Assembly: GCF_988242995.1 (NCBI RefSeq)
Contig: NZ_OZ547043.1
Strand: one strand, 5' to 3'
DNA: 64,000 bases
The notes beneath the pieces were generated by a model, which did no database searches, was not told where the DNA came from, and saw only the letters and a list, made by a program, of their open reading frames with translations. Each line of letters begins with the position of its first letter. The first letter of the stretch is position 1. Shown one piece after another: positions 8,445-57,890 of this stretch. A program made the position numbers and the translations under genes.

Positions 8445-8469
8445 AAAAGCGCCTGCGGGCGCTTTTTTT
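8445..8469 (+). terminator. Rho-independent terminator of serS
   Basis: aaaaagcgcctgcgggcgcttttttt: GC stem agcgcc/ggcgct with a T7 run, directly after the serS stop. Confidence 0.65.
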
Positions 8470-9180
8470 GTGCACAGAAAACCCCCAGCTAGGCTGGGGG
8501 TTCCGGAAAGCTTTCAGCTTTGAGCCAGTTATTAAAACCCCTTTTGATTTGTTAAAACACCTTGCGGTCTGGCAACTGCAAGTGTCAAACAAGAAATCAA
8601 AAGGGGGTCCCAATGGGGGACGAAAAGAGCTTAGCGCACACCCGCTGGAACTGTAAATATCACATAGTTTTTGCGCCGAAATACCGAAGACTGGCGTTTT
8701 ACGGAGAGAAGCGTAGGGCGATAGGCAGTATTTTGAGAAAGCTGTGTGAGTGGAAAAGCGTACGGATTCTGGAAGCAGAGTGCTGCGCAGATCATATCCA
8801 TATGCTTGTGGAAATCCCACCCAAAATGAGCGTATCCGGCTTTATGGGATATCTGAAAGGGAAAAGCAGTCTGATGCTTTACGAGCAGTTTGGGGATTTG
8901 AAATTCAAATACAGAAACAGGGAGTTCTGGTGCCGAGGGTACTATGTCGATACGGTGGGTAAGAACACGGCGAAGATACGTGACTACATAAAGCACCAGC
9001 TTGAAGAGGATAAAATGGGGGAGCAGTTATCGATTCCATATCCGGGCAGCCCGTTTACGGGCCGTAAGTAACGAAGTTGAATGCAAATGTCAGATCGTAT
9101 GCGCCTGTTAGGGCGCGGCTGGTAACAGAGCCTTACAGGCGCATTTGAAAAACCTCCGGCTATGCCGGAGGATATTTATT
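8467..9180 (+). mobile_element. IS200 insertion sequence, copy 1 (IS200/IS605 family, ~714 bp)
   Basis: Identical to the second copy at 13344..14057 over ~714 bp (both boundaries offset by 4877 bp); encodes IS200 TnpA; left-end hairpin aacccccag/ctgggggtt at 8480..8502 and right-end hairpins including cctccggc/gccggagg. Ends are inferred from where the two copies' flanks diverge, so +/- a few bp. Confidence 0.85.
8613..9071 (+). CDS. tnpA: IS200 transposase TnpA (Y1/HUH transposase, 152 aa)
   Basis: MGDEKSLAHTRWNCKYHIVFAPKYRR...HIHMLVEIPPKMSVS...YYVDTVGKN is the IS200 TnpA sequence with the HuH motif and catalytic Tyr; start taken at the internal Met of ORF 8562..9071. Confidence 0.9.
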   Translation: MGDEKSLAHTRWNCKYHIVFAPKYRRLAFYGEKRRAIGSILRKLCEWKSVRILEAECCADHIHMLVEIPPKMSVSGFMGYLKGKSSLMLYEQFGDLKFKYRNREFWCRGYYVDTVGKNTAKIRDYIKHQLEEDKMGEQLSIPYPGSPFTGRK

Positions 9181-9188
9181 GTCTCCCT

Positions 9189-9202
9189 TTGATACCGAAC
9201 AA
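9189..9202 (+). promoter_or_regulatory. Candidate FNR box of the dmsA promoter (TTGATaccgAACAA)
   Basis: Near match to the FNR consensus TTGAT-N4-ATCAA about 170 bp upstream of the dmsA start; dmsABC is known to be FNR-activated. Assignment is from memory, not verified. Confidence 0.4.
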
Positions 9203-9372
9203 TAATTACTCCTCACTTACACGTAATACTACTTTCGAGTGAAAATCTACCTATCTCTTTGATTTTCAAATTATTCGATGTATACAAGCCTATATAGCGA
9301 CCTGCTATAGAAATAATTACACAATACGGTTTGTTACTGGAATCAATCGTGAGCAAGCTTGAGTGAGCCATT

Positions 9373-11817
9373 ATGAAAACGAAAATCCCTGATGCGGTAT
9401 TGGCTGCTGAGGTGAGTCGCCGTGGTTTGGTAAAAACGACAGCGATCGGCGGCCTGGCAATGGCCAGCAGCGCATTAACATTACCTTTTAGTCGGATTGC
9501 GCACGCTGTCGATAGCGCCATTCCAACAAAATCAGACGAAAAGGTTATCTGGAGCGCCTGTACAGTTAACTGTGGTAGTCGCTGCCCGCTACGTATGCAC
9601 GTCGTGGACGGTGAAATCAAATATGTTGAAACGGATAATACTGGCGATGACAACTATGACGGCCTGCACCAGGTGCGCGCCTGTCTGCGTGGTCGTTCCA
9701 TGCGTCGCCGTGTCTACAATCCGGACCGCCTGAAATATCCGATGAAACGAGTCGGGGCGCGCGGTGAAGGCAAATTCGAGCGCATTAGCTGGGAAGAAGC
9801 CTACGACATCATCGCGACCAATATGCAGCGCCTGATCAAAGAGTACGGCAACGAGTCTATCTATCTGAACTATGGTACCGGTACGCTGGGCGGCACCATG
9901 ACCCGCTCCTGGCCGCCGGGAAATACCCTGGTCGCTCGCCTGATGAACTGCTGCGGCGGTTATCTGAACCATTACGGTGACTACTCTTCCGCGCAAATTG
10001 CGGAAGGTTTGAACTATACCTACGGCGGCTGGGCAGATGGTAACAGCCCGTCGGATATCGAAAACAGTAAACTGGTAGTGCTGTTTGGTAATAACCCTGG
10101 CGAAACGCGAATGAGTGGCGGTGGGGTGACTTACTATCTTGAACAGGCGCGCCAGAAATCTAATGCTCGCATGATCATCATCGATCCGCGCTATACCGAC
10201 ACCGGTGCCGGGCGCGAAGATGAGTGGATCCCTATTCGTCCGGGAACAGATGCCGCACTGGTTAACGGTCTGGCGTATGTCATGATCACCGAAAACCTGG
10301 TGGATCAGGCATTCCTCGATAAATTTTGCGTTGGCTACGACGAGAAAACACTGCCAGCCAGTGCGCCGAAAAATGGTCACTATAAAGCTTATATTCTGGG
10401 TGAAGGGCCAGATGGCGTGGCTAAAACGCCGGAATGGGCCTCGCAAATCACCGGTGTTCCGGCAGACAAAATCATCAAATTGGCTCGTGAAATCGGTAGT
10501 ACCAAACCGGCGTTTATCAGCCAGGGATGGGGCCCGCAGCGTCACGCTAACGGTGAAATCGCAACCCGTGCTATCTCGATGCTGGCGATTCTGACCGGTA
10601 ACGTTGGTATTAATGGAGGGAACAGCGGCGCGCGTGAAGGTTCATACAGCTTACCGTTTGTGCGTATGCCGACCCTCGAAAACCCGATCCAGACCAGCAT
10701 TTCTATGTTTATGTGGACCGATGCCATTGAACGTGGCCCGGAAATGACAGCGCTGCGTGATGGTGTGCGCGGGAAAGATAAGCTGGATGTGCCGATCAAA
10801 ATGATCTGGAACTATGCCGGTAACTGCCTGATTAACCAGCATTCTGAAATCAACCGTACCCATGAAATCCTTCAGGATGATAAGAAGTGCGAGCTGATTG
10901 TGGTTATCGACTGCCACATGACCTCATCAGCGAAATATGCTGACATCCTGCTGCCTGACTGCACCGCTTCCGAACAGATGGACTTTGCACTGGATGCATC
11001 CTGCGGGAATATGTCTTACGTGATTTTCAACGATCAGGTGATTAAACCGCGCTTTGAATGTAAGACCATCTATGAAATGACCAGCGAACTGGCAAAACGT
11101 CTTGGCGTTGAGCAACAGTTTACTGAAGGCCGTACACAGGAAGAGTGGATGCGGCATCTGTATGCCCAGTCGCGGGAAGCGATTCCTGAACTGCCAACGT
11201 TTGAAGAGTTCCGCAAGCAGGGGATCTTTAAAAAGCGCGACCCACAAGGGCACCACGTTGCTTATAAAGCTTTCCGTGAAGATCCTCAGGCAAATCCACT
11301 GACCACGCCATCGGGTAAAATTGAGATTTATTCGCAGGCGCTGGCTGACATTGCCGCGACCTGGGAATTGCCAGAAGGCGATGTGATCGATCCACTGCCG
11401 ATCTATACGCCGGGCTTTGAAAGTTATCAGGATCCGCTGAACAAACAATATCCGCTGCAGCTTACTGGCTTCCACTACAAATCTCGCGTTCACTCAACTT
11501 ACGGCAACGTTGATGTGCTGAAAGCAGCTTGCCGTCAGGAAATGTGGATCAACCCGCTTGATGCACAAAAACGCGGTATCAACAACGGCGATAAAGTCAG
11601 GATCTTTAACGATCGTGGTGAGGTTCATATTGAGGCGAAAGTGACGCCACGAATGATGCCGGGTGTGGTCGCACTGGGTGAAGGTGCCTGGTATGACCCG
11701 GATGCAAAACGTGTCGATAAGGGCGGTTGTATCAACGTACTGACCACTCAACGTCCGTCTCCTCTCGCGAAGGGGAATCCGTCGCATACAAACCTTGTTC
11801 AGGTTGAAAAGGTGTAA
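9373..11817 (+). CDS. dmsA: Anaerobic DMSO reductase catalytic subunit DmsA (molybdopterin, Tat signal)
   Basis: ORF 9373..11817, 814 aa; twin-arginine signal SRRGLVKTTAIGGLAMASSALTLPFSRIAHA and CTVNCGSRC FeS motif. Confidence 0.95.
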   Translation: MKTKIPDAVLAAEVSRRGLVKTTAIGGLAMASSALTLPFSRIAHAVDSAIPTKSDEKVIWSACTVNCGSRCPLRMHVVDGEIKYVETDNTGDDNYDGLHQVRACLRGRSMRRRVYNPDRLKYPMKRVGARGEGKFERISWEEAYDIIATNMQRLIKEYGNESIYLNYGTGTLGGTMTRSWPPGNTLVARLMNCCGGYLNHYGDYSSAQIAEGLNYTYGGWADGNSPSDIENSKLVVLFGNNPGETRMSGGGVTYYLEQARQKSNARMIIIDPRYTDTGAGREDEWIPIRPGTDAALVNGLAYVMITENLVDQAFLDKFCVGYDEKTLPASAPKNGHYKAYILGEGPDGVAKTPEWASQITGVPADKIIKLAREIGSTKPAFISQGWGPQRHANGEIATRAISMLAILTGNVGINGGNSGAREGSYSLPFVRMPTLENPIQTSISMFMWTDAIERGPEMTALRDGVRGKDKLDVPIKMIWNYAGNCLINQHSEINRTHEILQDDKKCELIVVIDCHMTSSAKYADILLPDCTASEQMDFALDASCGNMSYVIFNDQVIKPRFECKTIYEMTSELAKRLGVEQQFTEGRTQEEWMRHLYAQSREAIPELPTFEEFRKQGIFKKRDPQGHHVAYKAFREDPQANPLTTPSGKIEIYSQALADIAATWELPEGDVIDPLPIYTPGFESYQDPLNKQYPLQLTGFHYKSRVHSTYGNVDVLKAACRQEMWINPLDAQKRGINNGDKVRIFNDRGEVHIEAKVTPRMMPGVVALGEGAWYDPDAKRVDKGGCINVLTTQRPSPLAKGNPSHTNLVQVEKV

Positions 11818-11827
11818 GGAGTAACCG

Positions 11828-12445
11828 ATGACAACCCAGTATGGATTTTTAATTGATTCCAGCCGTTGCACCGGTTGCAAAACCTGCGAGCTGGCCTGTA
11901 AAGACTATAAAGATCTGACGCCGGAAGTCAGCTTCCGCCGCATTTATGAATATGCTGGCGGTGACTGGCAGGAAGATAACGGTGTCTGGCATCAGAACGT
12001 GTTTGCCTACTATCTGTCGATTTCATGTAACCACTGCGAAGATCCGGCTTGTACTAAAGTCTGCCCGAGTGGTGCGATGCATAAACGTGAAGATGGTTTT
12101 GTTGTAGTCGATGAAGATGTGTGCATTGGCTGCCGCTACTGCCATATGGCTTGCCCGTATGGCGCACCGCAATATAACGAAACGAAAGGCCATATGACCA
12201 AATGCGATGGTTGTTATGACCGTGTTGCGGAGGGGAAAAAGCCGATCTGTGTTGAATCTTGCCCGCTGCGGGCGCTGGATTTCGGCCCTATCGACGAGCT
12301 GCGTAAAAAACATGGCGATCTGGCGGCCGTTGCGCCGTTGCCGCGAGCTCACTTTACCAAACCGAATATTGTGATCAAACCCAATGCCAACAGCCGCCCG
12401 ACCGGGGATACCACTGGCTATCTGGCAAACCCGAAGGAGGTGTGA
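11828..12445 (+). CDS. dmsB: DMSO reductase iron-sulfur subunit DmsB (4x[4Fe-4S])
   Basis: ORF 11828..12445, 205 aa, several CxxCxxCxxxCP ferredoxin motifs. Confidence 0.95.
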   Translation: MTTQYGFLIDSSRCTGCKTCELACKDYKDLTPEVSFRRIYEYAGGDWQEDNGVWHQNVFAYYLSISCNHCEDPACTKVCPSGAMHKREDGFVVVDEDVCIGCRYCHMACPYGAPQYNETKGHMTKCDGCYDRVAEGKKPICVESCPLRALDFGPIDELRKKHGDLAAVAPLPRAHFTKPNIVIKPNANSRPTGDTTGYLANPKEV

Positions 12446-12446
12446 G

Positions 12447-13310
12447 ATGGGAAGTGGATGGCATGAATGGCCGCTGATGATCTTCACGGTCTTCGGGCAA
12501 TGTGTAGCGGGTGGTTTTATCGTTCTGGCTTTGGCGCTGCTCAAAGGCGACCTGCGAGCAGAAGCCCAGCAGCGTGTTATTGCCTGCATGTTTGGTTTAT
12601 GGGTGCTGATGGGCATTGGCTTTATCGCCTCTATGCTTCATCTTGGTTCACCGATGCGCGCCTTTAACTCGCTCAACCGGGTAGGGGCTTCAGCACTCAG
12701 TAACGAAATCGCCAGCGGTTCGATCTTTTTTGCTGTTGGTGGCATCGGCTGGTTACTGGCAATGCTGAAAAAGCTGTCACCGGCATTGCGTACGCTGTGG
12801 CTGGTGGTGACGATGGTTCTTGGCGTCATCTTTGTCTGGATGATGGTGCGTGTCTATAACAGCATCGATACCGTACCCACCTGGTACAGCATCTGGACAC
12901 CGATGGGCTTCTTCCTGACGATGTTCATGGGCGGCCCGTTACTGGGTTACCTGTTGCTGAGTCTGGCTGGCGTCGATGGCTGGGCGATGCGTCTGCTGCC
13001 AGCCATTTCTGTACTGGCACTGGTAGTGAGTGGCGTGATGTCAGTGATGCAGGGCGCAGAGCTGGCGACTATTCATAGTTCTGTGCAGCAGGCCGCAGCG
13101 CTGGTGCCGGACTATGGTGCGCTGATGTCCTGGCGGATCGTGCTTTTGGCTGTTGCCCTGTGTTTGTGGATTGCACCACAGCTAAAAGGTTATCAGCCTG
13201 CGGTTCCGCTACTATCCGTCTCATTCATTTTGCTTCTGGCAGGAGAATTAATCGGCCGCGGCGTATTCTATGGTTTGCATATGACCGTGGGGATGGCCGT
13301 CGCAAGCTAA
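12447..13310 (+). CDS. dmsC: DMSO reductase membrane anchor subunit DmsC
   Basis: MGSGWHEWPLMIFTVFGQCVAGGFIVLALALL within ORF 12384..13310; start chosen at the Met following an aggagg RBS, 1 bp after the dmsB stop. Confidence 0.9.
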   Translation: MGSGWHEWPLMIFTVFGQCVAGGFIVLALALLKGDLRAEAQQRVIACMFGLWVLMGIGFIASMLHLGSPMRAFNSLNRVGASALSNEIASGSIFFAVGGIGWLLAMLKKLSPALRTLWLVVTMVLGVIFVWMMVRVYNSIDTVPTWYSIWTPMGFFLTMFMGGPLLGYLLLSLAGVDGWAMRLLPAISVLALVVSGVMSVMQGAELATIHSSVQQAAALVPDYGALMSWRIVLLAVALCLWIAPQLKGYQPAVPLLSVSFILLLAGELIGRGVFYGLHMTVGMAVAS

Positions 13311-13346: not shown

Positions 13347-14057
13347 GTGCACAGAAAACCCCCAGCTAGGCTGGGGGTTCCGGAAAGCTTTCAGCTTTGA
13401 GCCAGTTATTAAAACCCCTTTTGATTTGTTAAAACACCTTGCGGTCTGGCAACTGCAAGTGTCAAACAAGAAATCAAAAGGGGGTCCCAATGGGGGACGA
13501 AAAGAGCTTAGCGCACACCCGCTGGAACTGTAAATATCACATAGTTTTTGCGCCGAAATACCGAAGACTGGCGTTTTACGGAGAGAAGCGTAGGGCGATA
13601 GGCAGTATTTTGAGAAAGCTGTGTGAGTGGAAAAGCGTACGGATTCTGGAAGCAGAGTGCTGCGCAGATCATATCCATATGCTTGTGGAAATCCCACCCA
13701 AAATGAGCGTATCCGGCTTTATGGGATATCTGAAAGGGAAAAGCAGTCTGATGCTTTACGAGCAGTTTGGGGATTTGAAATTCAAATACAGAAACAGGGA
13801 GTTCTGGTGCCGAGGGTACTATGTCGATACGGTGGGTAAGAACACGGCGAAGATACGTGACTACATAAAGCACCAGCTTGAAGAGGATAAAATGGGGGAG
13901 CAGTTATCGATTCCATATCCGGGCAGCCCGTTTACGGGCCGTAAGTAACGAAGTTGAATGCAAATGTCAGATCGTATGCGCCTGTTAGGGCGCGGCTGGT
14001 AACAGAGCCTTACAGGCGCATTTGAAAAACCTCCGGCTATGCCGGAGGATATTTATT
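13344..14057 (+). mobile_element. IS200 insertion sequence, copy 2 (same orientation as copy 1)
   Basis: Identical to 8467..9180 judging by identical six-frame ORFs and visible sequence; flanks differ on both sides. Right end abuts the ycaC stop codon. Confidence 0.85.
13490..13948 (+). CDS. tnpA: IS200 transposase TnpA (second copy)
   Basis: Translation identical to the TnpA at 8613..9071. Confidence 0.9.
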   Translation: MGDEKSLAHTRWNCKYHIVFAPKYRRLAFYGEKRRAIGSILRKLCEWKSVRILEAECCADHIHMLVEIPPKMSVSGFMGYLKGKSSLMLYEQFGDLKFKYRNREFWCRGYYVDTVGKNTAKIRDYIKHQLEEDKMGEQLSIPYPGSPFTGRK

Positions 14058-16160: not shown

Positions 16161-16195
16161 AGTGTGAACTTACTGTTTCACACTCTGCTTTTTTG
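16161..16195 (+). terminator. Probable ycaD terminator hairpin (agtgtgaac...gtttcacact followed by a T-run)
   Basis: Inverted repeat plus ctgcttttttgtttc immediately after the ycaD stop. Confidence 0.4.
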
Positions 16196-16355
16196 TTTCT
16201 TCTATCTGACTTGCTTTATTCCAAATTTTATTCGTTTAAAAATAAAATGTGCAGCAGGTTATAATTTTGCATTTCGCTATTTCCGCACTTCTTATTTGCC
16301 GCGCATAATCCCTCGTTTTACAGATGCCCCTTTAATTTTGGCGAAGGATTTGTCT

Positions 16356-17786
16356 ATGGCTGGGAATGTTCAGGAAAAACAGCTGCGATGGTACAACATT
16401 GCGCTGATGTCTTTTATCACTGTCTGGGGTTTTGGCAACGTTGTTAATAACTACGCCAACCAGGGGCTGGTGGTTGTTTTTTCATGGGTGTTTATCTTTG
16501 CGCTCTATTTCACACCTTATGCGCTAATTGTTGGTCAGTTAGGCTCGACCTTCAAAGATGGGAAGGGCGGGGTCAGTACCTGGATTAAACACACGATGGG
16601 ACCCGGACTGGCTTACCTCGCCGCGTGGACCTACTGGGTAGTGCATATTCCCTATCTGGCACAAAAACCCCAGGCAATACTGATTGCGCTCGGTTGGGCG
16701 ATGAAAGGCGACGGTTCGTTAATCAAAGAATATTCAGTCGTAGCGTTACAGGGGTTAACGCTGGTGCTGTTTATCTTCTTTATGTGGGTTGCTTCACGCG
16801 GTATGAAATCGCTGAAAATCGTCGGTTCTGTGGCAGGGATTGCGATGTTTGTTATGTCGCTCCTGTATGTGGCGATGGCGGTAACCGCGCCTGCGATTAC
16901 TGAAGTGCATATTGCGACCACAAACATTACCTGGGAAACGTTCATTCCTCATATCGACTTTACCTACATTACCACTATTTCAATGCTGGTTTTCGCGGTT
17001 GGCGGAGCAGAGAAGATTTCTCCTTACGTTAATCAAACGCGCAACCCAGGAAAAGAATTTCCAAAAGGGATGTTATGCCTGGCGGTGATGGTTGCGGTTT
17101 GTGCCATTCTGGGCTCACTGGCGATGGGGATGATGTTTGACTCGCGTAATATCCCGGATGACTTAATGACTAACGGTCAGTATTACGCCTTTCAGAAGCT
17201 GGGCGAGTATTACAACATGGGTAATACTTTAATGGTGATTTATGCCATTGCGAATACCCTGGGACAAGTAGCTGCGCTGGTATTCTCGATTGATGCGCCG
17301 CTTAAAGTGTTATTAGGCGATGCTGACAGCAAATATATTCCAGCCAGTTTATGTCGTACCAACGCTTCTGGTACGCCCGTTAATGGCTATTTTCTGACCC
17401 TGGTGCTGGTGGCGATCCTGATAATGCTACCGACTCTCGGCATTGGTGATATGAACAATCTCTATAAATGGCTGTTGAATCTTAACTCGGTAGTGATGCC
17501 GCTGCGTTATTTATGGGTATTTGTTGCATTTATTGCAGTTGTTCGCCTGGCGCAGAAATATAAACCAGAATATGTCTTTATTCGTAATAAGCCGCTGGCA
17601 ATGACCGTCGGAATTTGGTGTTTTGCCTTTACCGCTTTTGCCTGCCTGACTGGTATTTTCCCGAAAATGGAAGCCTTCACCGCAGAGTGGACATTCCAGT
17701 TGGCGCTGAATGTTGCAACGCCGTTTGTGTTGGTAGGATTAGGACTGATATTCCCGCTGCTGGCGCGTAAAGCGAATGGTAAATAA
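16356..17786 (+). CDS. ycaM: APC-family amino acid transporter YcaM
   Basis: ORF 16164..17786 contains MAGNVQEKQLRWYNIALMSFITVWGFGNVVNNYANQG; start set at that Met (476 aa). The upstream ORF extension is AT-rich promoter sequence. Confidence 0.9.
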   Translation: MAGNVQEKQLRWYNIALMSFITVWGFGNVVNNYANQGLVVVFSWVFIFALYFTPYALIVGQLGSTFKDGKGGVSTWIKHTMGPGLAYLAAWTYWVVHIPYLAQKPQAILIALGWAMKGDGSLIKEYSVVALQGLTLVLFIFFMWVASRGMKSLKIVGSVAGIAMFVMSLLYVAMAVTAPAITEVHIATTNITWETFIPHIDFTYITTISMLVFAVGGAEKISPYVNQTRNPGKEFPKGMLCLAVMVAVCAILGSLAMGMMFDSRNIPDDLMTNGQYYAFQKLGEYYNMGNTLMVIYAIANTLGQVAALVFSIDAPLKVLLGDADSKYIPASLCRTNASGTPVNGYFLTLVLVAILIMLPTLGIGDMNNLYKWLLNLNSVVMPLRYLWVFVAFIAVVRLAQKYKPEYVFIRNKPLAMTVGIWCFAFTAFACLTGIFPKMEAFTAEWTFQLALNVATPFVLVGLGLIFPLLARKANGK

Positions 17787-17953
17787 TTATTGTGGTCGGT
17801 GACGCTGACTCTGGCAGATCTGACCCGTTTTTACATAATCGAGAAATGCGCGCAAGCCGCAGGACATATACTGGCGGTTTGGGTAATACATTTGGAAGCT
17901 GTGCTGTAAGGGCGTTAGAAATAGAGCTCTGAATTATTATGCAGCGCGGAATA

Positions 17954-17984
17954 AAAAAGCGGCAACTCAATAAAGTTGCCGCTT
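17954..17984 (-). terminator. Rho-independent terminator downstream of pflA
   Basis: aaaaagcggcaactcaataaagttgccgcttt: on the minus strand an 11-bp stem aaagcggcaac/gttgccgcttt followed by a T-run. Confidence 0.55.
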
Positions 17985-17994
17985 TACGGGGAAA

Positions 17995-18735
17995 TTAGAA
18001 CATTACCTTATGACCGTACTGCTCAAGAATGCCTTTCACGCGTTCCATGGTTTCTTTCTTAGGTGGTTTAACACCATCGAGTTTGTATTCTTCACCCATC
18101 GCCACCCATTTGTGTTTGCCCAGTTCGTGGTAGGGGAGAAGCTCGATTTTCTCAACGTTGCCCATATCACGGGTAAATTCACCGAGGCGATGCGCTGAAT
18201 CGTCATCGTCAGACCAGCCTGGGACAACAACGTAGCGGATCCACACCTTCACATTTTTGTTCGCCAGATATTTGGCGAACTCCAGCGTGCGGTGGTTTGA
18301 AACTCCAACCAGATTTTGGTGGATCTCGTCGTTCATCTGTTTGAGATCGAGCATTACCAGGTCGGTTACTTCCAGCAGTTCATCAATCACCGGATCGTAA
18401 CGACGAACAAAACCGTTGGTGTCCAGACAGGTATGAATGCCTTCTTTTTTGCAGGCGCGGAACCAGTCACGAACAAACTCAGCTTGCAGGATTGCTTCAC
18501 CGCCGGATGCGGTAACGCCGCCGCCGGAAGCGTTCATAAAGTGGCGATAGGTCACCACCTCTTTCATTAAATCTTCAACGGTAACTTCTTTACCGCCATG
18601 CGTGTCCCAGGTGTCGCGGTTATGACAATACAGGCAGCGCATCAGGCAGCCCTGGAAAAAGGTGATAAAGCGAATACCCGGGCCGTCTACGGTTCCACAG
18701 GATTCAAAGGAGTGAATGCGACCAATAACTGACAT
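17995..18735 (-). CDS. pflA: Pyruvate formate-lyase activating enzyme PflA (radical SAM)
   Basis: [43 protein letters not shown] carries the CxxxCxxC radical-SAM motif; start at the internal Met of ORF 17995..18762. Confidence 0.95.
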
Positions 18736-18856
18736 TGCGGTGTTTCTCCAGATGTGGCCCATCTGAGGCCGTGTTGGTGCGCAGCTCGAAGGCTACGTCG
18801 AGTCTGTTTTGGCAGTCACCTTAAAGTATAGATAGCTGACAAAAAAGGCTCTCGTG

Positions 18857-39405: not shown

Positions 39406-40299
39406 ATGGAACAGCTGCGTGCCGAATTAAGCCATTTACTGGGCGAAAAACTCAGTCGTATTGAGTGCGTCAATGAAAAAGCGGATACGGCGTTGTGGGC
39501 TTTGTATGACAGCCAGGGAAACCCAATGCCGTTAATGGCAAGAAGCTTTAGTACGCCCGGAAAAGCCCGACAACTGGCATGGAAAACCACCATGCTGGCA
39601 AGAAGTGGAACTGTCCGTATGCCGACTATTTATGGTGTGATGACGCATGAAGAACACCCCGGCCCCGATGTCCTGCTACTGGAGCGGATGCGTGGTGTTT
39701 CGGTGGAGGCACCAGCCCGAACACCAGAACGCTGGGAACAGCTCAAAGATCAAATCGTTGAAGCCTTACTGGCCTGGCACCGTCAGGACAGTCGCGGTTG
39801 CGTCGGCGCGGTCGACAATACTCAGGAAAATTTCTGGCCCTCATGGTACCGGCAACATGTTGAAGTGCTATGGACCACGCTCAATCAGTTCAATAACACC
39901 GGTCTAACGATGCAGGATAAGCGGATCCTGTTTCGTACTCGCGAATGTCTCCCGGCATTATTTGAAGGCTTTAACGACAATTGTGTGCTGATTCACGGTA
40001 ACTTCTGTTTACGCAGCATGCTGAAAGATTCGCGCAGCGATCAGTTACTGGCGATGGTCGGGCCGGGACTAATGCTTTGGGCACCGCGAGAATACGAACT
40101 GTTCCGACTAATGGATAATTCTCTGGCGGAAGATTTGCTCTGGAGTTACCTGCAACGCGCGCCAGTGGCGGAGTCGTTCATCTGGCGGCGTTGGTTGTAT
40201 GTGTTATGGGATGAAGTTGCGCAACTGGTTAATACCGGACGATTTAGTCGGCGCAACTTCGATCTGGCATCAAAATCACTCTTGCCGTGGCTCGCCTGA
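39406..40299 (+). CDS. ycbJ: YcbJ (putative phosphotransferase/kinase-like protein)
   Basis: ORF 39406..40299, 297 aa, matches YcbJ. Confidence 0.8.
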   Translation: MEQLRAELSHLLGEKLSRIECVNEKADTALWALYDSQGNPMPLMARSFSTPGKARQLAWKTTMLARSGTVRMPTIYGVMTHEEHPGPDVLLLERMRGVSVEAPARTPERWEQLKDQIVEALLAWHRQDSRGCVGAVDNTQENFWPSWYRQHVEVLWTTLNQFNNTGLTMQDKRILFRTRECLPALFEGFNDNCVLIHGNFCLRSMLKDSRSDQLLAMVGPGLMLWAPREYELFRLMDNSLAEDLLWSYLQRAPVAESFIWRRWLYVLWDEVAQLVNTGRFSRRNFDLASKSLLPWLA

Positions 40300-41055
40300 C
40301 GAACTTTTTAGCCACTGCCAGATGCGGCCAAGCGTTTCATAGCCAACACGATCGCTATGCATCAACCAGACTGGAGAAGGGATTGCCCGTTCCCACGGGT
40401 TAAGCGGCGAGTCGATGGCCAACTGATTCGCCGGGGCTGGCAGCGGATTTAACCCTTCCTGCTGAAAAAAGATCATCGCCCGCGGCAAATGAGACGCGGA
40501 TGTCACCAGCAGGAAAGGGGCGTCACCAATTGCCTGTTTCACTGCCGCAGCTTCTTCTTCGGTATCTTTTGGCAAATCCAGAGTGATAATTTGCTCGCGC
40601 GGCACGCCCAGCGATTGCGCAACTCGGGCACCTACTTCGGCTGTACTCACCGTATTGGTTTTTGCTACGCCTCCCGTGAAGATCAGTTTTGATCCCGGAT
40701 TTTCGCGCCATAAGCGAATACCTTCATTCAGGCGGGGCAGACTGTTATTGATTAAATTCGAGCTTGGTGCCCACTGCGGGTTCCAGGTATAACCACCTCC
40801 GAGCACCACGATATAGTCCACTTTTTGCGAATTATTCCATGTCGGATAGGTGCTTTCGATGGGACGCAGCAGGCGGTCGGCTACCGGTTGCAAACTCAAT
40901 AACAAGAGCGCCAGCCACCCAATGCTAATAAAAATCTTCCCGGTTTTTTGAAAACGGCTAAACCACAGCAGCGCCAGGCCAGCGCCAATAATCAACAACA
41001 TTAGCGGAAGTGGCAGCAACATATTGCCAATCACTTTTTTCAGTGTAAAAAGCAT
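40276..41055 (-). CDS. elyC: Envelope biogenesis factor ElyC (YcbC, DUF218)
   Basis: ORF 40276..41055 (-), 259 aa, MLFTLKKVIGNMLLPLPLMLLIIGAGLALLWFSRF; 3' end overlaps ycbJ by 24 bp. Confidence 0.88.
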   Translation of the reverse strand: MLFTLKKVIGNMLLPLPLMLLIIGAGLALLWFSRFQKTGKIFISIGWLALLLLSLQPVADRLLRPIESTYPTWNNSQKVDYIVVLGGGYTWNPQWAPSSNLINNSLPRLNEGIRLWRENPGSKLIFTGGVAKTNTVSTAEVGARVAQSLGVPREQIITLDLPKDTEEEAAAVKQAIGDAPFLLVTSASHLPRAMIFFQQEGLNPLPAPANQLAIDSPLNPWERAIPSPVWLMHSDRVGYETLGRIWQWLKSSSGEPRQE

Positions 41056-41065: not shown

Positions 41066-42491
41066 TAATGCCGATCAGTTAAGGATCAGTTGACCGATCC
41101 AGTGGCTGTGTAAGAATCCGGAAACGCTCACTTGTTTCCGGATTTTTTTATGCACATTGGACAGGCTCTTGATCTGGTATCCCGTTACGATTCTCTGCGT
41201 AACCCACTGACTTCTCTGGGGGATTACCTCGACCCCGAACTCATCTCTCGTTGCCTTGCCGAATCAGGTACTGTAACGCTACGCAAGCGCCGTCTTCCCC
41301 TCGAAATGATGGTCTGGTGTATTGTTGGCATGGCGCTTGAGCGTAAAGAACCTCTTCACCAGATTGTGAATCGCCTGGACATCATGCTGCCGGGCAATCG
41401 CCCCTTCGTTGCCCCCAGTGCCGTTATTCAGGCCCGCCAGCGCCTGGGAAGTGAGGCTGTCCGCCGCGTGTTCACGAAAACAGCGCAGCTCTGGCATAAC
41501 GCCACGCCGCATCCGCACTGGTGCGGCCTGACCCTGCTGGCCATCGATGGTGTGTTCTGGCGCACACCGGATACACCAGAGAACGATGCAGCCTTCCCCC
41601 GCCAGACACATGCCGGGAACCCGGCGCTCTACCCGCAGGTCAAAATGGTCTGCCAGATGGAACTGACCAGCCATCTGCTGACGGCTGCAGCCTTCGGCAC
41701 GATGAAGAACAGCGAAAATGAGCTTGCTGAGCAACTTATAGAACAAACCGGCGATAACACTCTGACGTTAATGGATAAAGGTTATTACTCACTGGGACTG
41801 TTAAATGCCTGGAGCCTGGCGGGAGAACACCGCCACTGGATGATACCTCTCAGAAAGGGAGCGCAATATGAAGAGATCAGAAAACTGGGTAAAGGCGATC
41901 ATCTGGTGAAGCTGAAAACCAGCCCGCAGGCACGAAAAAAGTGGCCGGGACTGGGAAATGAAGTGACTGCCCGCCTGCTGACCGTGACGCGCAAAGGAAA
42001 AGTCTGCCATCTGCTGACGTCGATGACGGACGCCATGCGCTTCCCCGGAGGAGAAATGGGGGATCTGTACAGTCATCGCTGGGAAATCGAACTGGGATAC
42101 AGGGAGATAAAACAGACGATGCAACGGAGCAGGCTGACGCTGAGAAGTAAAAAGCCGGAGCTTGTGGAGCAAGAGCTGTGGGGTGTCTTACTGGCTTATA
42201 ATCTGGTGAGATATCAGATGATTAAAATGGCGGAACATCTGAAAGGTTACTGGCCGAATCAACTGAGTTTCTCAGAATCATGCGGAATGGTGATGAGAAT
42301 GCTGATGACATTGCAGGGCGCTTCACCGGGACGTATACCGGAGCTGATGCGCGATCTTGCAAGTATGGGACAACTTGTGAAATTACCGACAAGAAGGGAA
42401 AGGGCCTTCCCGAGAGTGGTAAAGGAGAGGCCCTGGAAATACCCCACAGCCCCGAAAAAGAGCCAGTCAGTTGCTTAACTGACTGGCATTA
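41066..42491 (+). mobile_element. IS4 insertion sequence (1426 bp) with 18-bp imperfect terminal inverted repeats
   Basis: IR-L taatgccgatcagttaag (41066..41083) and IR-R cttaactgactggcatta (42474..42491; reverse complement taatgccagtcagttaag, 16/18 match); encodes an IS4-type DDE transposase; flanked by an 11-bp direct repeat. Confidence 0.9.
41150..42478 (+). CDS. insG: IS4 transposase (InsG-like, DDE family)
   Basis: [24 protein letters not shown]...DKGYYS...[15 protein letters not shown] in ORF 41132..42478; start could be 41132 or 41150. Confidence 0.88.
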
Positions 42492-42502: not shown

Positions 42503-42627
42503 TCCTTTTTTAACCATATAGCAAGGGATCGCCAGCGATATTACACCAGACGGGTTCATTCTCGCCGTGGCTGTGACAAAATAGCGTCTTTATCAGAAAA
42601 CGTCTTAGCCAACCGGTGGAGAAAGCA

Positions 42628-43413
42628 ATGCAGGATCGCAATTTTGATGATATTGCGGAAAAGTTTTCCCGTAACATTTACGGCACCACCAAAGGGCAGC
42701 TTCGACAGGCTATTCTGTGGCAGGATCTCGATCGCGTGCTGGCGGAAATGGGCCCGCAAAAACTGCGTGTGCTGGATGCTGGCGGTGGAGAAGGGCAGAC
42801 CGCAATCAAAATGGCTGAGCGCGGGCATCAGGTCATTTTATGCGATCTTTCTGCGCAGATGATCGACCGCGCAAAACAGGCGGCAGAAGCAAAAGGTGTG
42901 AGCGACAACATGCAATTTATACATTGCGCCGCTCAGGATGTTGCTTCGCATTTGGAAACGCCCGTTGATCTGATATTGTTCCATGCGGTGCTCGAGTGGG
43001 TGGCCGATCCCCGCAGCGTATTACAGACCCTGTGGTCAGTGTTGCGTCCAGGCGGTGTGTTGTCGTTAATGTTCTACAATGCGCACGGCTTGCTGATGCA
43101 TAACATGGTCGCCGGGAATTTTGATTACGTGCAGGCGGGAATGCCGAAAAAGAAAAAACGGACGCTTTCGCCAGATTATCCACGCGACCCGGCGCAGGTT
43201 TATCTGTGGCTGGAAGAAGCTGGTTGGCAAATTATGGGTAAGACAGGCGTTCGCGTGTTTCATGATTATCTGCGCGAGAAGCACCAGCAGCGCGACTGCT
43301 ATGAAGCATTACTTGAATTAGAAACGCGTTATTGCCGTCAGGAACCGTATATTACCCTGGGGCGTTATATTCATGTCACCGCGCGCAAACCGCAGAGCAA
43401 GGATAAAGTATGA
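42628..43413 (+). CDS. cmoM: SAM-dependent methyltransferase CmoM (SmtA)
   Basis: [38 protein letters not shown] with [11 protein letters not shown] motif; start at the internal Met of ORF 42616..43413; stop overlaps the mukF start. Confidence 0.9.
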
Positions 43414-53388: not shown

Positions 53389-53400
53389 AGGCGCATAAAA

Positions 53401-53423
53401 AAGCCCGCTTTTTAAGCGGGCTT
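53401..53423. terminator. Bidirectional terminator between gloC (+) and aspC (-)
   Basis: Perfect palindrome aagcccgctt ttt aagcgggctt with A/T runs on both sides. Confidence 0.65.
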
Positions 53424-53438
53424 CATTGTTTTTAACGC

Positions 53439-54629
53439 TTACAGCACTGCCACAATCGCTTCGCACAGCGGAGCCATGTTATCTGGTGTCATCCCGGCTA
53501 CGTTCACACGACCAGAAGCAACAGCATACACGCCAAACTCTTCGCGCAGACGCAGCACTTGTTCTTTTGTCAGACCACTGAAGGAGAACATGCCGTTCTG
53601 TTTGATGATAAAGCTGAAGTCGCGGTTTGCGCCTTTTTCCTGCAGCGTATTGACGAACAACTGACGCATACGCTGAATACGCTGGCGCATATCAGTCAGC
53701 TCTTGTTCCCAAATCGCACGTAACGCATCGTTGCTCAGGATGGTGGCAACAACAGAAGCGCCGTGTGCTGGTGGGTTAGAGTAGTTAGCGCGAATCGCCG
53801 CTTTCATTTGGCTGAATGCGCGATCAACGGTTTCACTGTCAGCAGCAACCAGAGTACAAGCGCCAACACGCTCGTTGTACAGGCCAAAGTTTTTAGAGTA
53901 GGAACTGGCAACAATCAGCTCTTTATGCATAGCCGCGAAAGCGCGCAGTCCTTCAGCATCTTCTTCCAGACCACGGGCAAACCCCTGGTAAGCGAAGTCA
54001 AACAGCGGTAACCAGCCTTTCTCAACGGAAAGTTGTGCCAGTGTCTGCCATTGTTCCAGCGTAGGGTCGATACCGGTTGGGTTATGGCAGCAGCCATGGA
54101 ACAGCACTACGTCGCCAGCCTGAGCTTCGTTCAGGCTGTTAATCAGTGCATCGAAGTCAAGGGTGTGATTTTCCGCATCATAATAAGCGTATTCACGAAC
54201 TTCCAGACCTGCAGAGTTAAAGACGCTCTTATGGTTCGGCCAGCTTGGGTTGCTCACCCACACACGCTTAACGCTGGTATTTTTTGCCAGGAAATCGGCA
54301 GCCACGCGTAGTGCGCCAGTGCCACCCGGAGTCTGTGCCGTGCGAGCACGTTTGTCATTGATCAGGGCGCTACCTTTACCAAACAGCAGTTCCTGAGTGC
54401 AGCGACCAAATTCAGGGATGCCGTCAATGCCGAGGTAATTTTTGGTGGTTTCATTTTCGAGCAGATACTGTTCAGCTTTTTTCACGCTGGTCAGTACCGG
54501 GGTTTTGCCCGTCTCATCTTTATAGACACCAATCCCGAGGTTAATTTTGCCGGGACGTTCATCGGCACGAAACAGATCGGCCAGGCCCAGAATCGGGTCG
54601 GCAGGAGCGGCGGTAATGTTCTCAAACAT
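53439..54629 (-). CDS. aspC: Aspartate aminotransferase AspC
   Basis: ORF 53439..54629 (-), 396 aa, [49 protein letters not shown]. Confidence 0.97.
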
Positions 54630-54756: not shown

Positions 54757-54788
54757 ATAAAAAAAACAGGACCAAAGTCCTGTTTTTT
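54757..54788 (-). terminator. Rho-independent terminator of ompF
   Basis: aaaaaaacaggaccaaagtcctgttttttcgg: stem caggac/gtcctg with T-runs, directly downstream of the ompF stop on the minus strand. Confidence 0.65.
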
Positions 54789-54813
54789 CGGCATTTAACA
54801 AAGAGGTGTGCTA

Positions 54814-55887
54814 TTAGAACTGGTAAACGATACCCACAGCTACGGTGTCGTCAGAACCTACGCCCAGTTTGTTGTCAGAATCGATCTGGTTGATGATGTA
54901 GTCAACATAGGTGGACATGTTTTTGTTGAAGTAGTAGGTTGCGCCCACTTCAAAGTAGTTCACCAGATCAACATCACCGATACCTTCTACGTCTTTCGCT
55001 TTAGATTTGGTGTAAGCGATGGACGGACGCAGACCGAAATCGAACTGGTATTGCGCAACTAACAGAACGTCTTGCGTTTTGTTGGCGAAGCCGCCTTCAA
55101 TTGGCGTAGCGTTACGGGTTTCACCGTAGTTCGCTGCCAGGTAGATGTTGTTCGCGTCATACTTCAGACCAGTTGCCCACTGTTCAGCTTTTTTACCCTG
55201 ACCGCGGAATTCGGCTTCCTGGGCGTCGGTACGGTCTGCTGCACCGTAAGCACCTACGATACCAAAGCCTTCGAATTCGTAGCTGATAGAGCCACCGACG
55301 CCGTCGCCGTTGGAACGCTCAGGAATACCAGCACGTTCGTTTTTGCCCAGGTACTGAACGGCAAAGTTCAGGCCGTCAACCAGACCGAAGAAGTTGGAGT
55401 TACGATAGGTAGCAACGCCGCCTACACGACCAACGAAGAAGTCATCGCTGTATGCCGTGTCACCGCCAAACTCAGGCAGCATATCGGTGTAACCCAGTGC
55501 GTCGTAAACCACACCGTAGTTACGACCGTAGTCGATAGAACCCGCATCAGCGAATTTCAGACCTGCGAATGCCAGACGAGTTTTGTTACCTTTCTGGGCA
55601 TCAGCGCCTTCAGAGTTGTTACCCTGGAAGTTATATTCCCACTGACCGTAGCCGGTCAGATCGGAATTGATTTGTGTTTCCCCTTTAAAACCAAGACGGG
55701 CATAAGTTTTGTCGCCGTTTCCGCCGTAACTGTTTACACCATTGTCTTTAGAAAAATAATGCAGACCGACAGCTTTACCGTACAGATCTACTTTGTTGCC
55801 ATCTTTGTTATAGATTTCTGCAGCGTTTGCAGTACCTGCTACTAACAGAGCAGGGACGATCACTGCCAGAATATTGCGCTTCATCAT
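54814..55887 (-). CDS. ompF: Outer membrane porin OmpF, allelic variant (357 aa including signal peptide)
   Basis: ORF 54814..55887 (-): [47 protein letters not shown] ... VGIVYQF; five residues shorter than the K-12 protein as I recall it, with differences clustered in loop regions. Confidence 0.93.
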
Positions 55888-56400
55888 TATTTATTACCCT
55901 CATGGTTTTTTTTATGACACCTGCCACTGCCGTCAATAAGTTCTGTCAATAAAAATTTACGGAACTATTGATGAGAGTTTGGTGTCTTTATGTGTCTGCA
56001 GGCATCTTTCCATTCAAACTAACGTTTCGCTACCGTGAAAGTGCTACAAAGATAAAGATTTGGTTTCAAAAAGAAAAAATATGTAACCAAAAGTAAAATT
56101 TAAGGAACTTTGTGAACACCGTCATATTTCCATAGAAGCGTGATGATATTTACAGCAATATTTATCTATTTATATGATTTCATTATATTTAAATTAACTA
56201 AACGGAAATTTTGTTTCTGATGGAAACTTTATCGACCTGGCACTAAATCCTCGTTCAGACATCCAGAACGCCAAAAAATAGTATGAAAATTGTGCTATCA
56301 GCTAAGAAAAAACTAATCCGCAATAAGAATGCGGATTATTTTTTGTGCGCAAATGTTGCAGTGTAATATTCCGTAACAGGATGATCGTTATGGTGGGGTT
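55888..56400 (-). promoter_or_regulatory. ompF 5'UTR and promoter/regulatory region (OmpR F1-F3 region around 56040..56105, AT-rich upstream region)
   Basis: Minus-strand reading of 56041..56100 gives tttacttttggttacatattttttctttttgaaaccaaatctttatc, recognisable as the OmpR-box region of the ompF promoter; sites assigned from memory of the ompF promoter. Confidence 0.55.
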
Positions 56401-56489: not shown

Positions 56490-57890
56490 TTAGAAGCTGG
56501 CGTTACGTGGAGTACGTGGGAACGGAATCACATCACGCACGTTTTGCACGCCTGTTACGTAAGCAATCAGGCGTTCAAAACCAAGACCGAAACCGGAATG
56601 CGGAACAGTACCGTAGCGACGCAGATCGCGATACCACCAGTAATCTTCTTTGTTCAGGCCCATTTCCAGCATACGCTCGTCCAGCACGTCCAGACGCTCT
56701 TCACGCTGGGAGCCACCAATGATCTCACCGATGCCCGGAGCCAGAACGTCCATAGCCGCAACGGTTTTACCGTCTTCGTTAAGGCGCATATAGAACGCTT
56801 TAATATCTTTCGGATAGTTTTTAACCACTACCGGTGCTTTAAAGTGTTCTTCCGCCAGATAACGCTCATGCTCAGAAGAGAGATCGACGCCCCAGTAAAC
56901 CGGGTTTTCAAACTTCCTGCCGCAGTTTTCGAGAATGGTCACTGCGTCGGTGTAATCCACCTGCGCGAAATCGGCCTCAATAAAGCGTTCCAGACGTGAA
57001 ACGGCATCTTTATCTACGCGTTCAGCGAAGAATTTCATGTCGTCAGCGCGTTCTTCGAGAACCGCTTTGAAGACATATTTCAGCATGGCTTCAGCCAGAC
57101 CCGCAATATCGTTCAGGTTAGCAAACGCCACTTCCGGCTCCAGCATCCAGAATTCCGCCAGGTGACGGCTGGTGTTGGAGTTTTCAGCACGGAAAGTCGG
57201 GCCGAAGGTATAAATTTTGGACAATGCGCAAGCGTAGGTTTCGCCGTTCAACTGGCCAGATACGGTCAGGAAAGACTCTTTACCAAAGAAGTCTTTGTCG
57301 AAATCCACTTTGCCCTGATCGTTACGCGGCAGGTTTTCCAGATCCAGCGTAGAAACGCGGAACATTTCGCCAGCCCCTTCGGTATCAGACGCAGTAATCA
57401 GTGGCGTTGAAACCCAGAAGAATCCCTGCTCGTTAAAGAAGCGATGCAGCGCCTGCGCCAGCGTATGGCGAACGCGCGCGACGGCACCAATCAGGTTTGT
57501 GCGCGGACGCAGGTGAGCGACTTCACGCAGATACTCAATGCTGTGGCGTTTTGCCGCCATCGGGTAAGTGTCTGGATCTTCAACCCAACCAGCAACTTCA
57601 ACCTTGCTGGCCTGAATTTCAAATTGTTGCCCCTGGCCCGGCGATGCCACGACTTTACCCGTCACAATGACCGAGCAACCGGTGGTCAGACGCAGGACGT
57701 CTTCATTGTAATTGGGCAGAGAATTATTGATGACAGCCTGTACAGGATCAAAGCAGGAACCGTCATAAACGGCGAGGAAGGAGATGCCAGCTTTTGAATC
57801 TCGGCGGGTACGTACCCATCCGCGCACGGTGACTTCGCTGTCAACGGCTACGCGGCCCTGGAGTACGTCGGCTACAGGCACAACGCTCAT
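56490..57890 (-). CDS. asnS: Asparaginyl-tRNA synthetase AsnS
   Basis: [51 protein letters not shown] in ORF 56490..57935; start at the internal Met (466 aa). Confidence 0.95.

Follow-up and report, generated by a model that had tools for sequence, protein, structure and literature searches.

What kind of allele is the ompF gene carried by the 64,000-nucleotide stretch of DNA analysed here (hereafter called the “window”), and how did the outer loops of its protein come to differ from those of K-12 OmpF? The original prediction held that the gene is an ompF allele whose substitutions are concentrated in the predicted surface loops, by implication on a K-12 background. The gene is ompF. Its open reading frame is intact, begins with ATG and encodes 357 residues, and the features by which it had been recognized—the signal peptide, the start of the barrel, the three variable stretches and the VGIVYQF end—are all present in it. 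The protein scores 751.9 bits against the NCBIfam OmpF equivalog NF007446, above the cut-off of 583, and lies below the cut-offs of both the PhoE model (486 bits, cut-off 599) and the OmpC model (465 bits, cut-off 484). It matches Pfam Porin_1 (E = 6e-137) and aligns end to end with the solved K-12 OmpF chains 3hw9, 2omf and 1opf (E = 7.8e-216), and it terminates in YQF with the C-terminal Phe present. The gene order asnS-ompF-aspC (asnS at 56490-57890 and aspC at 53439-54629, both on the minus strand) is the same in K-12 and in all of the other E. coli records compared. The equivalog score, the alignment with the solved chains and the synteny all agree in the assignment.

Where does the protein depart from K-12 OmpF? 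Against the reference, which is the OmpF gene of a K-12 genome (L001), it shows 20 substitutions, with L4 longer by one residue and L6 shorter by six. Every amino-acid change falls within mature residues 26-248, and the identity is about 92-94%, according to how the gaps are counted. The loop topology was taken from the strands of an AlphaFold2 model of the window allele, which was built from 42 homologues and has 16 strands; its mean pLDDT of 72.7 is moderate, with values below 50 in part of L3, and its topology agrees with the solved K-12 structure. On this topology, 15 of the 20 substitutions and both indels are located in the surface loops L1, L2, L4, L5 and L6 (one-sided Fisher p = 2.1e-7 for the mature protein and 9.4e-7 for the divergent block alone). 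M38K lies at the L1/beta2 border, and the conservative replacements Y90F, V93A, F96I and Y182F are found at the periplasmic ends of strands. The alignment to K-12 and the topology mapping thus bear out the view that the differences are non-random and mainly extracellular. The three stretches that had been singled out correspond to L4, L5 and L6, and L1 and L2 differ besides.

The stretch with the greatest charge change is L4, where one of the two adjacent K-12 arginines is replaced by glutamate and the second is kept, and the substitutions in L1 and L2 alter the charge as well. Six substitutions fall in the L5 stretch that reads TNLQEAQPLGN in K-12, and the L6 tip is PIEGGF in the window allele and PITNKFTNTSGF in K-12. 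The loop motifs of the allele class are all present, namely DNGVN in L1, AGIPE in L4, PIEGGF in L6 and the L5 motif. On the periplasmic side, the F90, A93 and I96 states match those of other Escherichia lineages. The glutamate at position 71, which is retained in L2, forms an inter-subunit salt bridge in OmpF (PMC5056734). The short L6 is also found in E. albertii, in SCPM-O-B-8794 (a second species-level Escherichia), in Citrobacter and in Superficieibacter. Since all of these outgroups have the short loop, TNKFTN is an insertion in the K-12 type rather than a deletion in the window allele. Judged from these sequences, the five-residue difference in length from K-12 OmpF reflects the K-12 insertion in L6, and not a loss in the window allele.

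The barrel and the pore are conserved. The model superposes on 2ZFG and 1OPF with TM scores of 0.83-0.87 (Foldseek), the 36-residue segment between model strands 5 and 6 represents the long L3, and the model strands 248-263 and 266-280 flank L6. The residues that we take to form the constriction zone of OmpF—K16, R42, R82, R132, D113, E117 and the PEFGG motif—are the same as in K-12 and occupy invariant columns in the 42-sequence alignment. No replacement from K-12 occurs in L3, L7 or L8. The best identity of the window protein to any PDB entry is 92%, and the PDB comparison found no solved structure with its loop set. With this conserved core, the protein is expected to form a normal 16-stranded trimeric general-diffusion porin, with a channel that would work as in K-12.

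The expression signals appear equally intact. Using as queries the F1, F2 and F3 sequences, which we assume to be the OmpR boxes of the ompF promoter, we found each of them upstream of the gene (Table 1). The region from -249 to the ATG, including the 5′UTR, is identical to that of K-12. Further upstream, the single substitution next to the distal F4 box is also present in U12A and SMS-3-5. On the other side of the gene, a hairpin followed by a T run in the ompF-aspC interval is likely to be an intrinsic terminator; a consensus terminator scan did not flag this hairpin, probably because the A/T runs extend its stem. From these signals, the expression of the gene and its control by osmolarity and micF would be as in K-12.

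Table 1. Positions of ompF, its control signals and its loops in the window, with the main differences from K-12
Feature	Residues	Position in window	Strand	Remarks
Distal OmpR box F4 region		56358..56377	-	Core as in K-12; one T-to-C just 3′ of the core
OmpR boxes F1, F2, F3		56035..56097	-	Each matched exactly, at -210, -189 and -168 relative to the ATG; same in K-12
Difference-free tract against CE10		54842..55912	-	Minimum exchanged segment
ompF CDS		54814..55887	-	357 codons plus stop; protein is WP_000977905.1
Signal peptide	1-22	55822..55887	-	Same as K-12 in protein and DNA; 0/117 nt differences in CDS nt 1-117
Deeply divergent block		55095..55768	-	K-12 CDS nt 120-808, codons 40-271; its first difference from K-12 at 55768, its last at 55095
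L1 and strand 2 border	47-60	55708..55749	-	G26D, E29V, M38K (mature K-12 numbering)
L2, latching loop	90-101	55585..55620	-	T77K; salt-bridge residue E71 unchanged
Periplasmic turn T2 and strand ends	112-118	55534..55554	-	Y90F, V93A, F96I
Constriction loop L3	122-157	55417..55524	-	0 amino-acid changes, 8 synonymous; dN 0, dS 0.40; holds D113, E117 and PEFGG
L4	181-195	55303..55347	-	K-12 R-DTARR becomes RAGIPER; one inserted residue, R167E
L5	219-232	55192..55233	-	N198D, L199A, Q203E, P204F, L205R, N207Q
L6	tip at 264-265	55087..55104	-	Short form PIEGGF, without K-12 TNKFTN
Hairpin in ompF-aspC interval		54757..54795	-	ACAGGAC-TTTG-GTCCTGT plus T run, read from the sequence; likely terminator

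How are the differences distributed in the DNA? Besides the 20 replacement codons, 51 codons differ from K-12 only synonymously, and a single block with sharp boundaries holds all of the amino-acid differences and 49 of these 51 codons. Along the coding sequence, the nucleotide differences from K-12 number 0/117, 85/678 and 2/276 in the 5′ end, the block and the 3′ end, respectively (chi-square p = 9e-12), so that 85/678 in the block stands against 2/393 in the remaining coding sequence. The nucleotide divergence of the block is 12.5%, as compared to 2.1% for the surrounding 10.5 kb. Nei-Gojobori dS values of the window against K-12 rise from 0.00 over the first 39 codons to 0.51 across the block and drop back to 0.03 over the final 92 codons; the neighbouring genes give 0.060 (asnS) and 0.056 (aspC), about nine times less than the block. 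Codons 41-240 carry the synonymous differences at a fairly even density, in L3 and the strands too, and many loop codons differ at two or three positions. For scale, the dS of asnS and aspC between E. coli and E. albertii is 0.39-0.50, and that between E. coli and SCPM-O-B-8794 is 0.31-0.44. The block dS is similar to these between-species values, and thus the split between the block and the K-12 type is roughly as old as the separation of those species. The contrast with the flanks (0.06), together with the sharp boundaries, indicates an old allele lineage that was moved by recombination. A sharp change of divergence within the gene and an incongruence between gene and flanks, both of which are found here, mark a mosaic gene. 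The window ompF is therefore a mosaic, in which the first 39 and the last 92 codons are K-12-like and the central block of about 670 bp is divergent. Accordingly, the original prediction holds for the identity of the porin and for its loop differences, while the K-12 background with loop substitutions gives way before the 51 synonymous codons and the block dS of 0.51.

Has this allele moved between strains? In pepN, pncB, asnS, aspC, gloC, ldtD and mukB, the window is 1.0-2.7% apart from CE10 and SMS-3-5, and the flanks of CE10 show 184 differences in 10490 positions (1.75%). Within ompF, CE10 differs from the window at only 1 of 1074 positions, and neither SMS-3-5 nor CE10 differs at any of the 681 aligned block bases. 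At the flank rate, about 19 differences from CE10 would be expected in ompF, and 1 is observed (Poisson P = 1.3e-7); when the rate is taken from the two adjacent genes only, P is 1.1e-4. The comparison of K-12 with U12A yields 24/1089 differences in ompF and about 2.3% in the flanks. As the ompF rate of this pair is close to the flank rate, ompF is not intrinsically slow. Nearly identical ompF genes on flanks that have diverged by 1-2.7% imply homologous recombination between diverged backgrounds, and the allele has been transferred between E. coli lineages in this way. What passes from one lineage to another is either the block alone or the entire gene, in a segment of about 1.1-1.25 kb. The flanks of NY1601, ECOCN22, S1-JOR-02-A and elppa9 are related to those of the window, and these four provide no evidence for transfer. 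Much of the distribution of the allele is probably due to descent, with occasional transfer.

The allele is common. Its DNA is 100% identical to the ompF of NY1601, and its protein, WP_000977905.1 (UniProt C9E711), is encoded in NY1601, ECOCN22, S1-JOR-02-A, SMS-3-5 and CE10 and occurs in exact form on at least 1000 contigs. The carriers include environmental, poultry, dog and clinical isolates. In a collection of 5,426 complete E. coli genomes, 5,435 records matched the window ompF. At least 99% DNA identity to the window allele was found in 484 records, which corresponds to about 9% of the genomes (approximately 1 in 11); 2 records, which might be informative intermediates, fall at 95-99%, and the remainder at 80-95%. 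Viewed from K-12 ompF, 4,922 records have at least 95% identity, 491 have 90-95% and 19 have 80-90%. By DNA identity, therefore, the E. coli ompF genes fall in essence into two classes, a large one that resembles K-12 and a deeply distinct one of about 490 records, to which the window allele belongs. At the protein level, the accessible text of a 2021 preprint (bioRxiv 10.1101/2021.09.21.461324) distinguishes five OmpF groups by combinations of highly variable regions, which are L1, a periplasm-side turn, L4, L5 and L6, and names CE10 as a group representative.

What would the changed outer face do? The binding of phage K20 has been assigned to L5, L6 and L7 of OmpF (Traurig & Misra 1999, as cited in bioRxiv 10.1101/2021.09.21.461324, among others), T2-like phages with Gp38 use OmpF, and the variability of OmpF loops between E. 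coli isolates has been described (PMC5056734 and bioRxiv 10.1101/2021.09.21.461324). It is plausible from the sequence that an altered phage spectrum is the most likely consequence of the outer-face changes. A change in colicin susceptibility had been predicted alongside. The determinants of colicin N in OmpF are G119 in L3 and position 285 in L7; both are unchanged in the window allele, as are the pore-lining residues, and thus a change in colicin sensitivity is less likely than one in phage sensitivity. Widely differing OmpF proteins were each able to act as the co-receptor for contact-dependent inhibition (CDI) by E. coli 536 (PMC5056734), and less effect is therefore expected on CDI sensitivity. 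A literature search on natural OmpF variants tested against phages returned nothing relevant.

Compared pairwise by the Nei-Gojobori method, dN/dS amounts to 0.16 for the loops, 0.05 for the strands and turns, 0 for L3 and 0.10 for the block as a whole. No site class exceeds 1 in this pairwise measure, in which the loop dS of 1.17 is saturated and the loop codons are possibly non-homologous. With a loop dN/dS of 0.16, the pairwise comparison does not demonstrate diversifying selection, and since the saturation keeps the test weak, it does not count against such selection either. By analogy with known receptor use, two old classes would persist through agents that read the cell surface, such as the K20 and T2-like phages and possibly CDI systems and antibodies, and selection of this kind is the most likely reason for the persistence of both. 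Considering all of these lines together, we hold with considerable confidence that the window carries a CE10-type ompF, which encodes a normal porin, contains a mosaic block, has spread by recombination and would be under selection by surface-reading agents.

Could the loops instead have arisen from a K-12-like ancestor by point mutation, with diversifying selection acting inside the E. coli lineage of today, as the original prediction implies? The strong concentration of the changes in the surface loops is what such a history would produce, and ompF is listed among the positively selected E. coli genes by Chen 2006 and Petersen 2007, as cited in bioRxiv 10.1101/2021.09.21.461324. However, the 51 codons with only synonymous differences run through the strands and L3, the block dS exceeds the values of the adjacent genes roughly ninefold and changes at sharp boundaries, and many loop codons carry two or three nucleotide changes with a dN/dS that stays at 0.16. 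Moreover, the outgroups share the short L6, and the K-12 and U12A pair reveals no high local mutation rate. Such a history is thus very unlikely. It is also improbable, though somewhat less so, that the allele matters mainly for the permeation of antibiotics and solutes, through R167E at the L4 pore mouth and the other charge changes. Losing a conserved arginine of the L4 vestibule lowers beta-lactam permeation through OmpC, and PMC6970295, which reports this, states that OmpF conserves the residue as well; the replacement of one L4 arginine by glutamate in the window allele may be the counterpart of that loss. Against this, the constriction residues and L3 are unchanged, the second L4 arginine is retained, and the carriers, from environmental, poultry and dog to clinical isolates, present no apparent association with resistance. 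By the same analogy, R167E may have some role in permeation. Is the gene perhaps non-functional and decaying, or an artefact of the assembly? Inactivated copies do occur: the one in elppa9 is annotated as frameshifted, and the K-12-type ompF of H101 is interrupted by IS1. For the window, this idea is refuted by the intact reading frame and the conservation: the same protein is found in hundreds of genomes, the block dN/dS is 0.10, and the promoter, the 5′UTR and the C-terminal Phe are intact.

The mosaic allele thus stands, and the question becomes where its central block came from. We scanned for donors with the protein against one genome per bacterial species, taking the matches listed, with E. 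fergusonii, E. marmotae and E. ruysiae outside the scan. Among the matches listed, E. albertii and SCPM-O-B-8794 have 94% protein identity, followed by Citrobacter and others. For the K-12-type block, dS follows the species distances (SCPM-O-B-8794, 0.32; E. albertii, 0.53). The values for the window block are larger (0.66 to SCPM-O-B-8794, 0.85 to E. albertii and 1.05 to Citrobacter). At third positions, the distance of the window block is 0.26-0.33 to K-12, 0.34-0.41 to SCPM-O-B-8794 and 0.47-0.50 to E. albertii. Neighbour-joining gives the block a basal position in the Escherichia cluster, whether the loop codons are included or left out, and nests the 3′ end of the gene with K-12. None of the species matches listed is nearer to the block at the DNA level than K-12, and no donor was found among the 80 species-representative loci or the 120 protein clusters of the matches listed. 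Among the 134 proteins searched, the L4 motif AGIPE and the L5 motif DAQEAEF turned up solely in the cluster of this E. coli allele and in truncated variants of it.

One possible, still tentative reading is that the block is a balanced polymorphism older than the species, that is, that two OmpF surface “serotypes” predate the split of E. coli from its nearest relatives. Frequency-dependent selection by phages or other surface-reading agents would then keep both classes, and a cassette of about 1.1 kb would be shuttled between phylogroups. The central block could instead have been imported into E. coli from an unsampled Escherichia or close relative, which we regard as doubtful though conceivable. 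The dS of 0.51 to K-12, which equals the between-species values, and the basal position of a block that departs from the species distances kept by the K-12 type speak for an import. The lack of a donor among the species matches and protein clusters listed and the restriction of the L4 and L5 motifs to the E. coli cluster among the 134 proteins speak against it. So does the finding that the nearest sequence is still that of K-12, which is in line with two types that have long existed side by side within E. coli and have exchanged DNA from time to time. The data are compatible both with a balanced polymorphism and with a single import from an unsampled relative.

As a discovery, the allele carries little weight: its protein is catalogued and common, and the loop-centred, recombination-driven variation of E. 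coli porins, including their mosaicism, is already published. Its importance lies elsewhere. About 1 in 11 E. coli genomes shows L4, L5 and L6 unlike those of K-12, the strain on which nearly all of the structural and receptor work is based, and this is of use for the prediction of phage host range, for colicin and CDI targeting and for the design of OmpF-directed antibodies. In addition, two old allele classes in ompF, as compared to the cloud of variants in ompC, offer a clean case for tests of balancing selection on a phage receptor.

How does the window allele compare with the known porins? The closest are those of CE10 (O7:K1) and SMS-3-5, which encode the identical protein at the same locus with 1-2 differences in 1074 nucleotides, and whose flanks, differing by 1-2.7%, place them in a different strain background. 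With K-12 OmpF (P02931; 2OMF, 1OPF, 2ZFG and 3HW9), the window protein shares the fold, the signal peptide, L3, L7, L8 and the C-terminal third. The preprint on mosaic evolution (bioRxiv 10.1101/2021.09.21.461324) works, in its accessible text, at the protein level; the five OmpF variable regions given there are those that differ here, and the differences around the periplasmic turn T2 correspond to its periplasm-side HVR2. Beyond that text, the present analysis adds the block dS, where exactly the block begins and ends, the direction of the L6 length change, and how nearly identical the gene is on diverged backgrounds. OmpC of E. coli behaves likewise in that L4 and L5 vary among isolates (Beck et al. 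2016, PMC5056734) and in that ompC alleles recombine between sequence types (PMC6970295). In contrast to OmpC, whose protein variants number over 220 and combine their loops in many ways (PMC5056734), ompF comprises essentially two DNA classes.

Two E. coli records retrieved in the DNA search carry an ompF gene that is 95-99% identical to the allele of the window and lies between the two main classes, the K-12-like and the CE10-type. These two genes could be intermediates or recombinants. In addition, inactivated ompF genes are present in two clinical isolates. Strain elppa9 (record L086, 6001-7078) bears the same ompF allele as the window with four additional bases, and the gene is annotated as frameshifted, while in DJH_183sputum (match H101) a K-12-type ompF is split by an IS1 element. 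Both cases fit the OmpF loss already known in resistant isolates (PMC6970295).

A hairpin with a 9-bp stem, also kept in K-12, lies in the spacer between asnS and ompF, some 430-450 bp ahead of the ompF start codon. T runs flank it on either side, and it resembles a bidirectional terminator. Beyond ompF, the aspC-gloC spacer is longer by about 186 bases in K-12 than in the window, NY1601, U12A, CE10, and SMS-3-5, and the extra K-12 bases are probably a repetitive extragenic element.

Features located in the window
Feature	Position	Strand	Remarks
STnc490 (Rfam)	8480-8603	+	full-length, 146.4 bits
STnc130 (Rfam)	9140-9282	-	
STnc490 (Rfam), second match	13357-13480	+	full-length, 146.4 bits
elyC	40276-41055	-	neighbour of the transposase ORF
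IS4 family transposase ORF	41132-42478	+	448 aa; NCBIfam, 299.5 bits; Pfam Nterm_IS4 and DDE_Tnp_1
cmoM	42616-43413	+	other neighbour of the transposase ORF
gloC-aspC spacer	53389-53438		compared with ~8465-8685 of the K-12 genome record L001
Hairpin	56314-56338	both	terminator scan

The two equally scoring STnc490 matches bracket three ORFs (9373-13310), which we take to be dmsABC from the K-12 gene order. Together, these matches form a 124-nt direct repeat on either side of the operon. Farther along, only about 209 bases separate a 540-aa ORF (16164-17786) from the 255-aa ORF (17995-18762) that comes before pflB. In K-12, ycaN and ycaK are situated between ycaM and pflA. Considering this gene order and the short gap, ycaN and ycaK may be missing from 16164-18762 of the window.

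An IS4 family transposase ORF lies between elyC and cmoM. In the DNA comparison, coverage of positions 30000-54800 reaches just 94% in the nearest relatives, NY1601 for example, which is consistent with the absence of the IS4 insertion from these strains. CE10 has its own IS4 nearby, but at a site different from that in the window, between aroA and ycaL.
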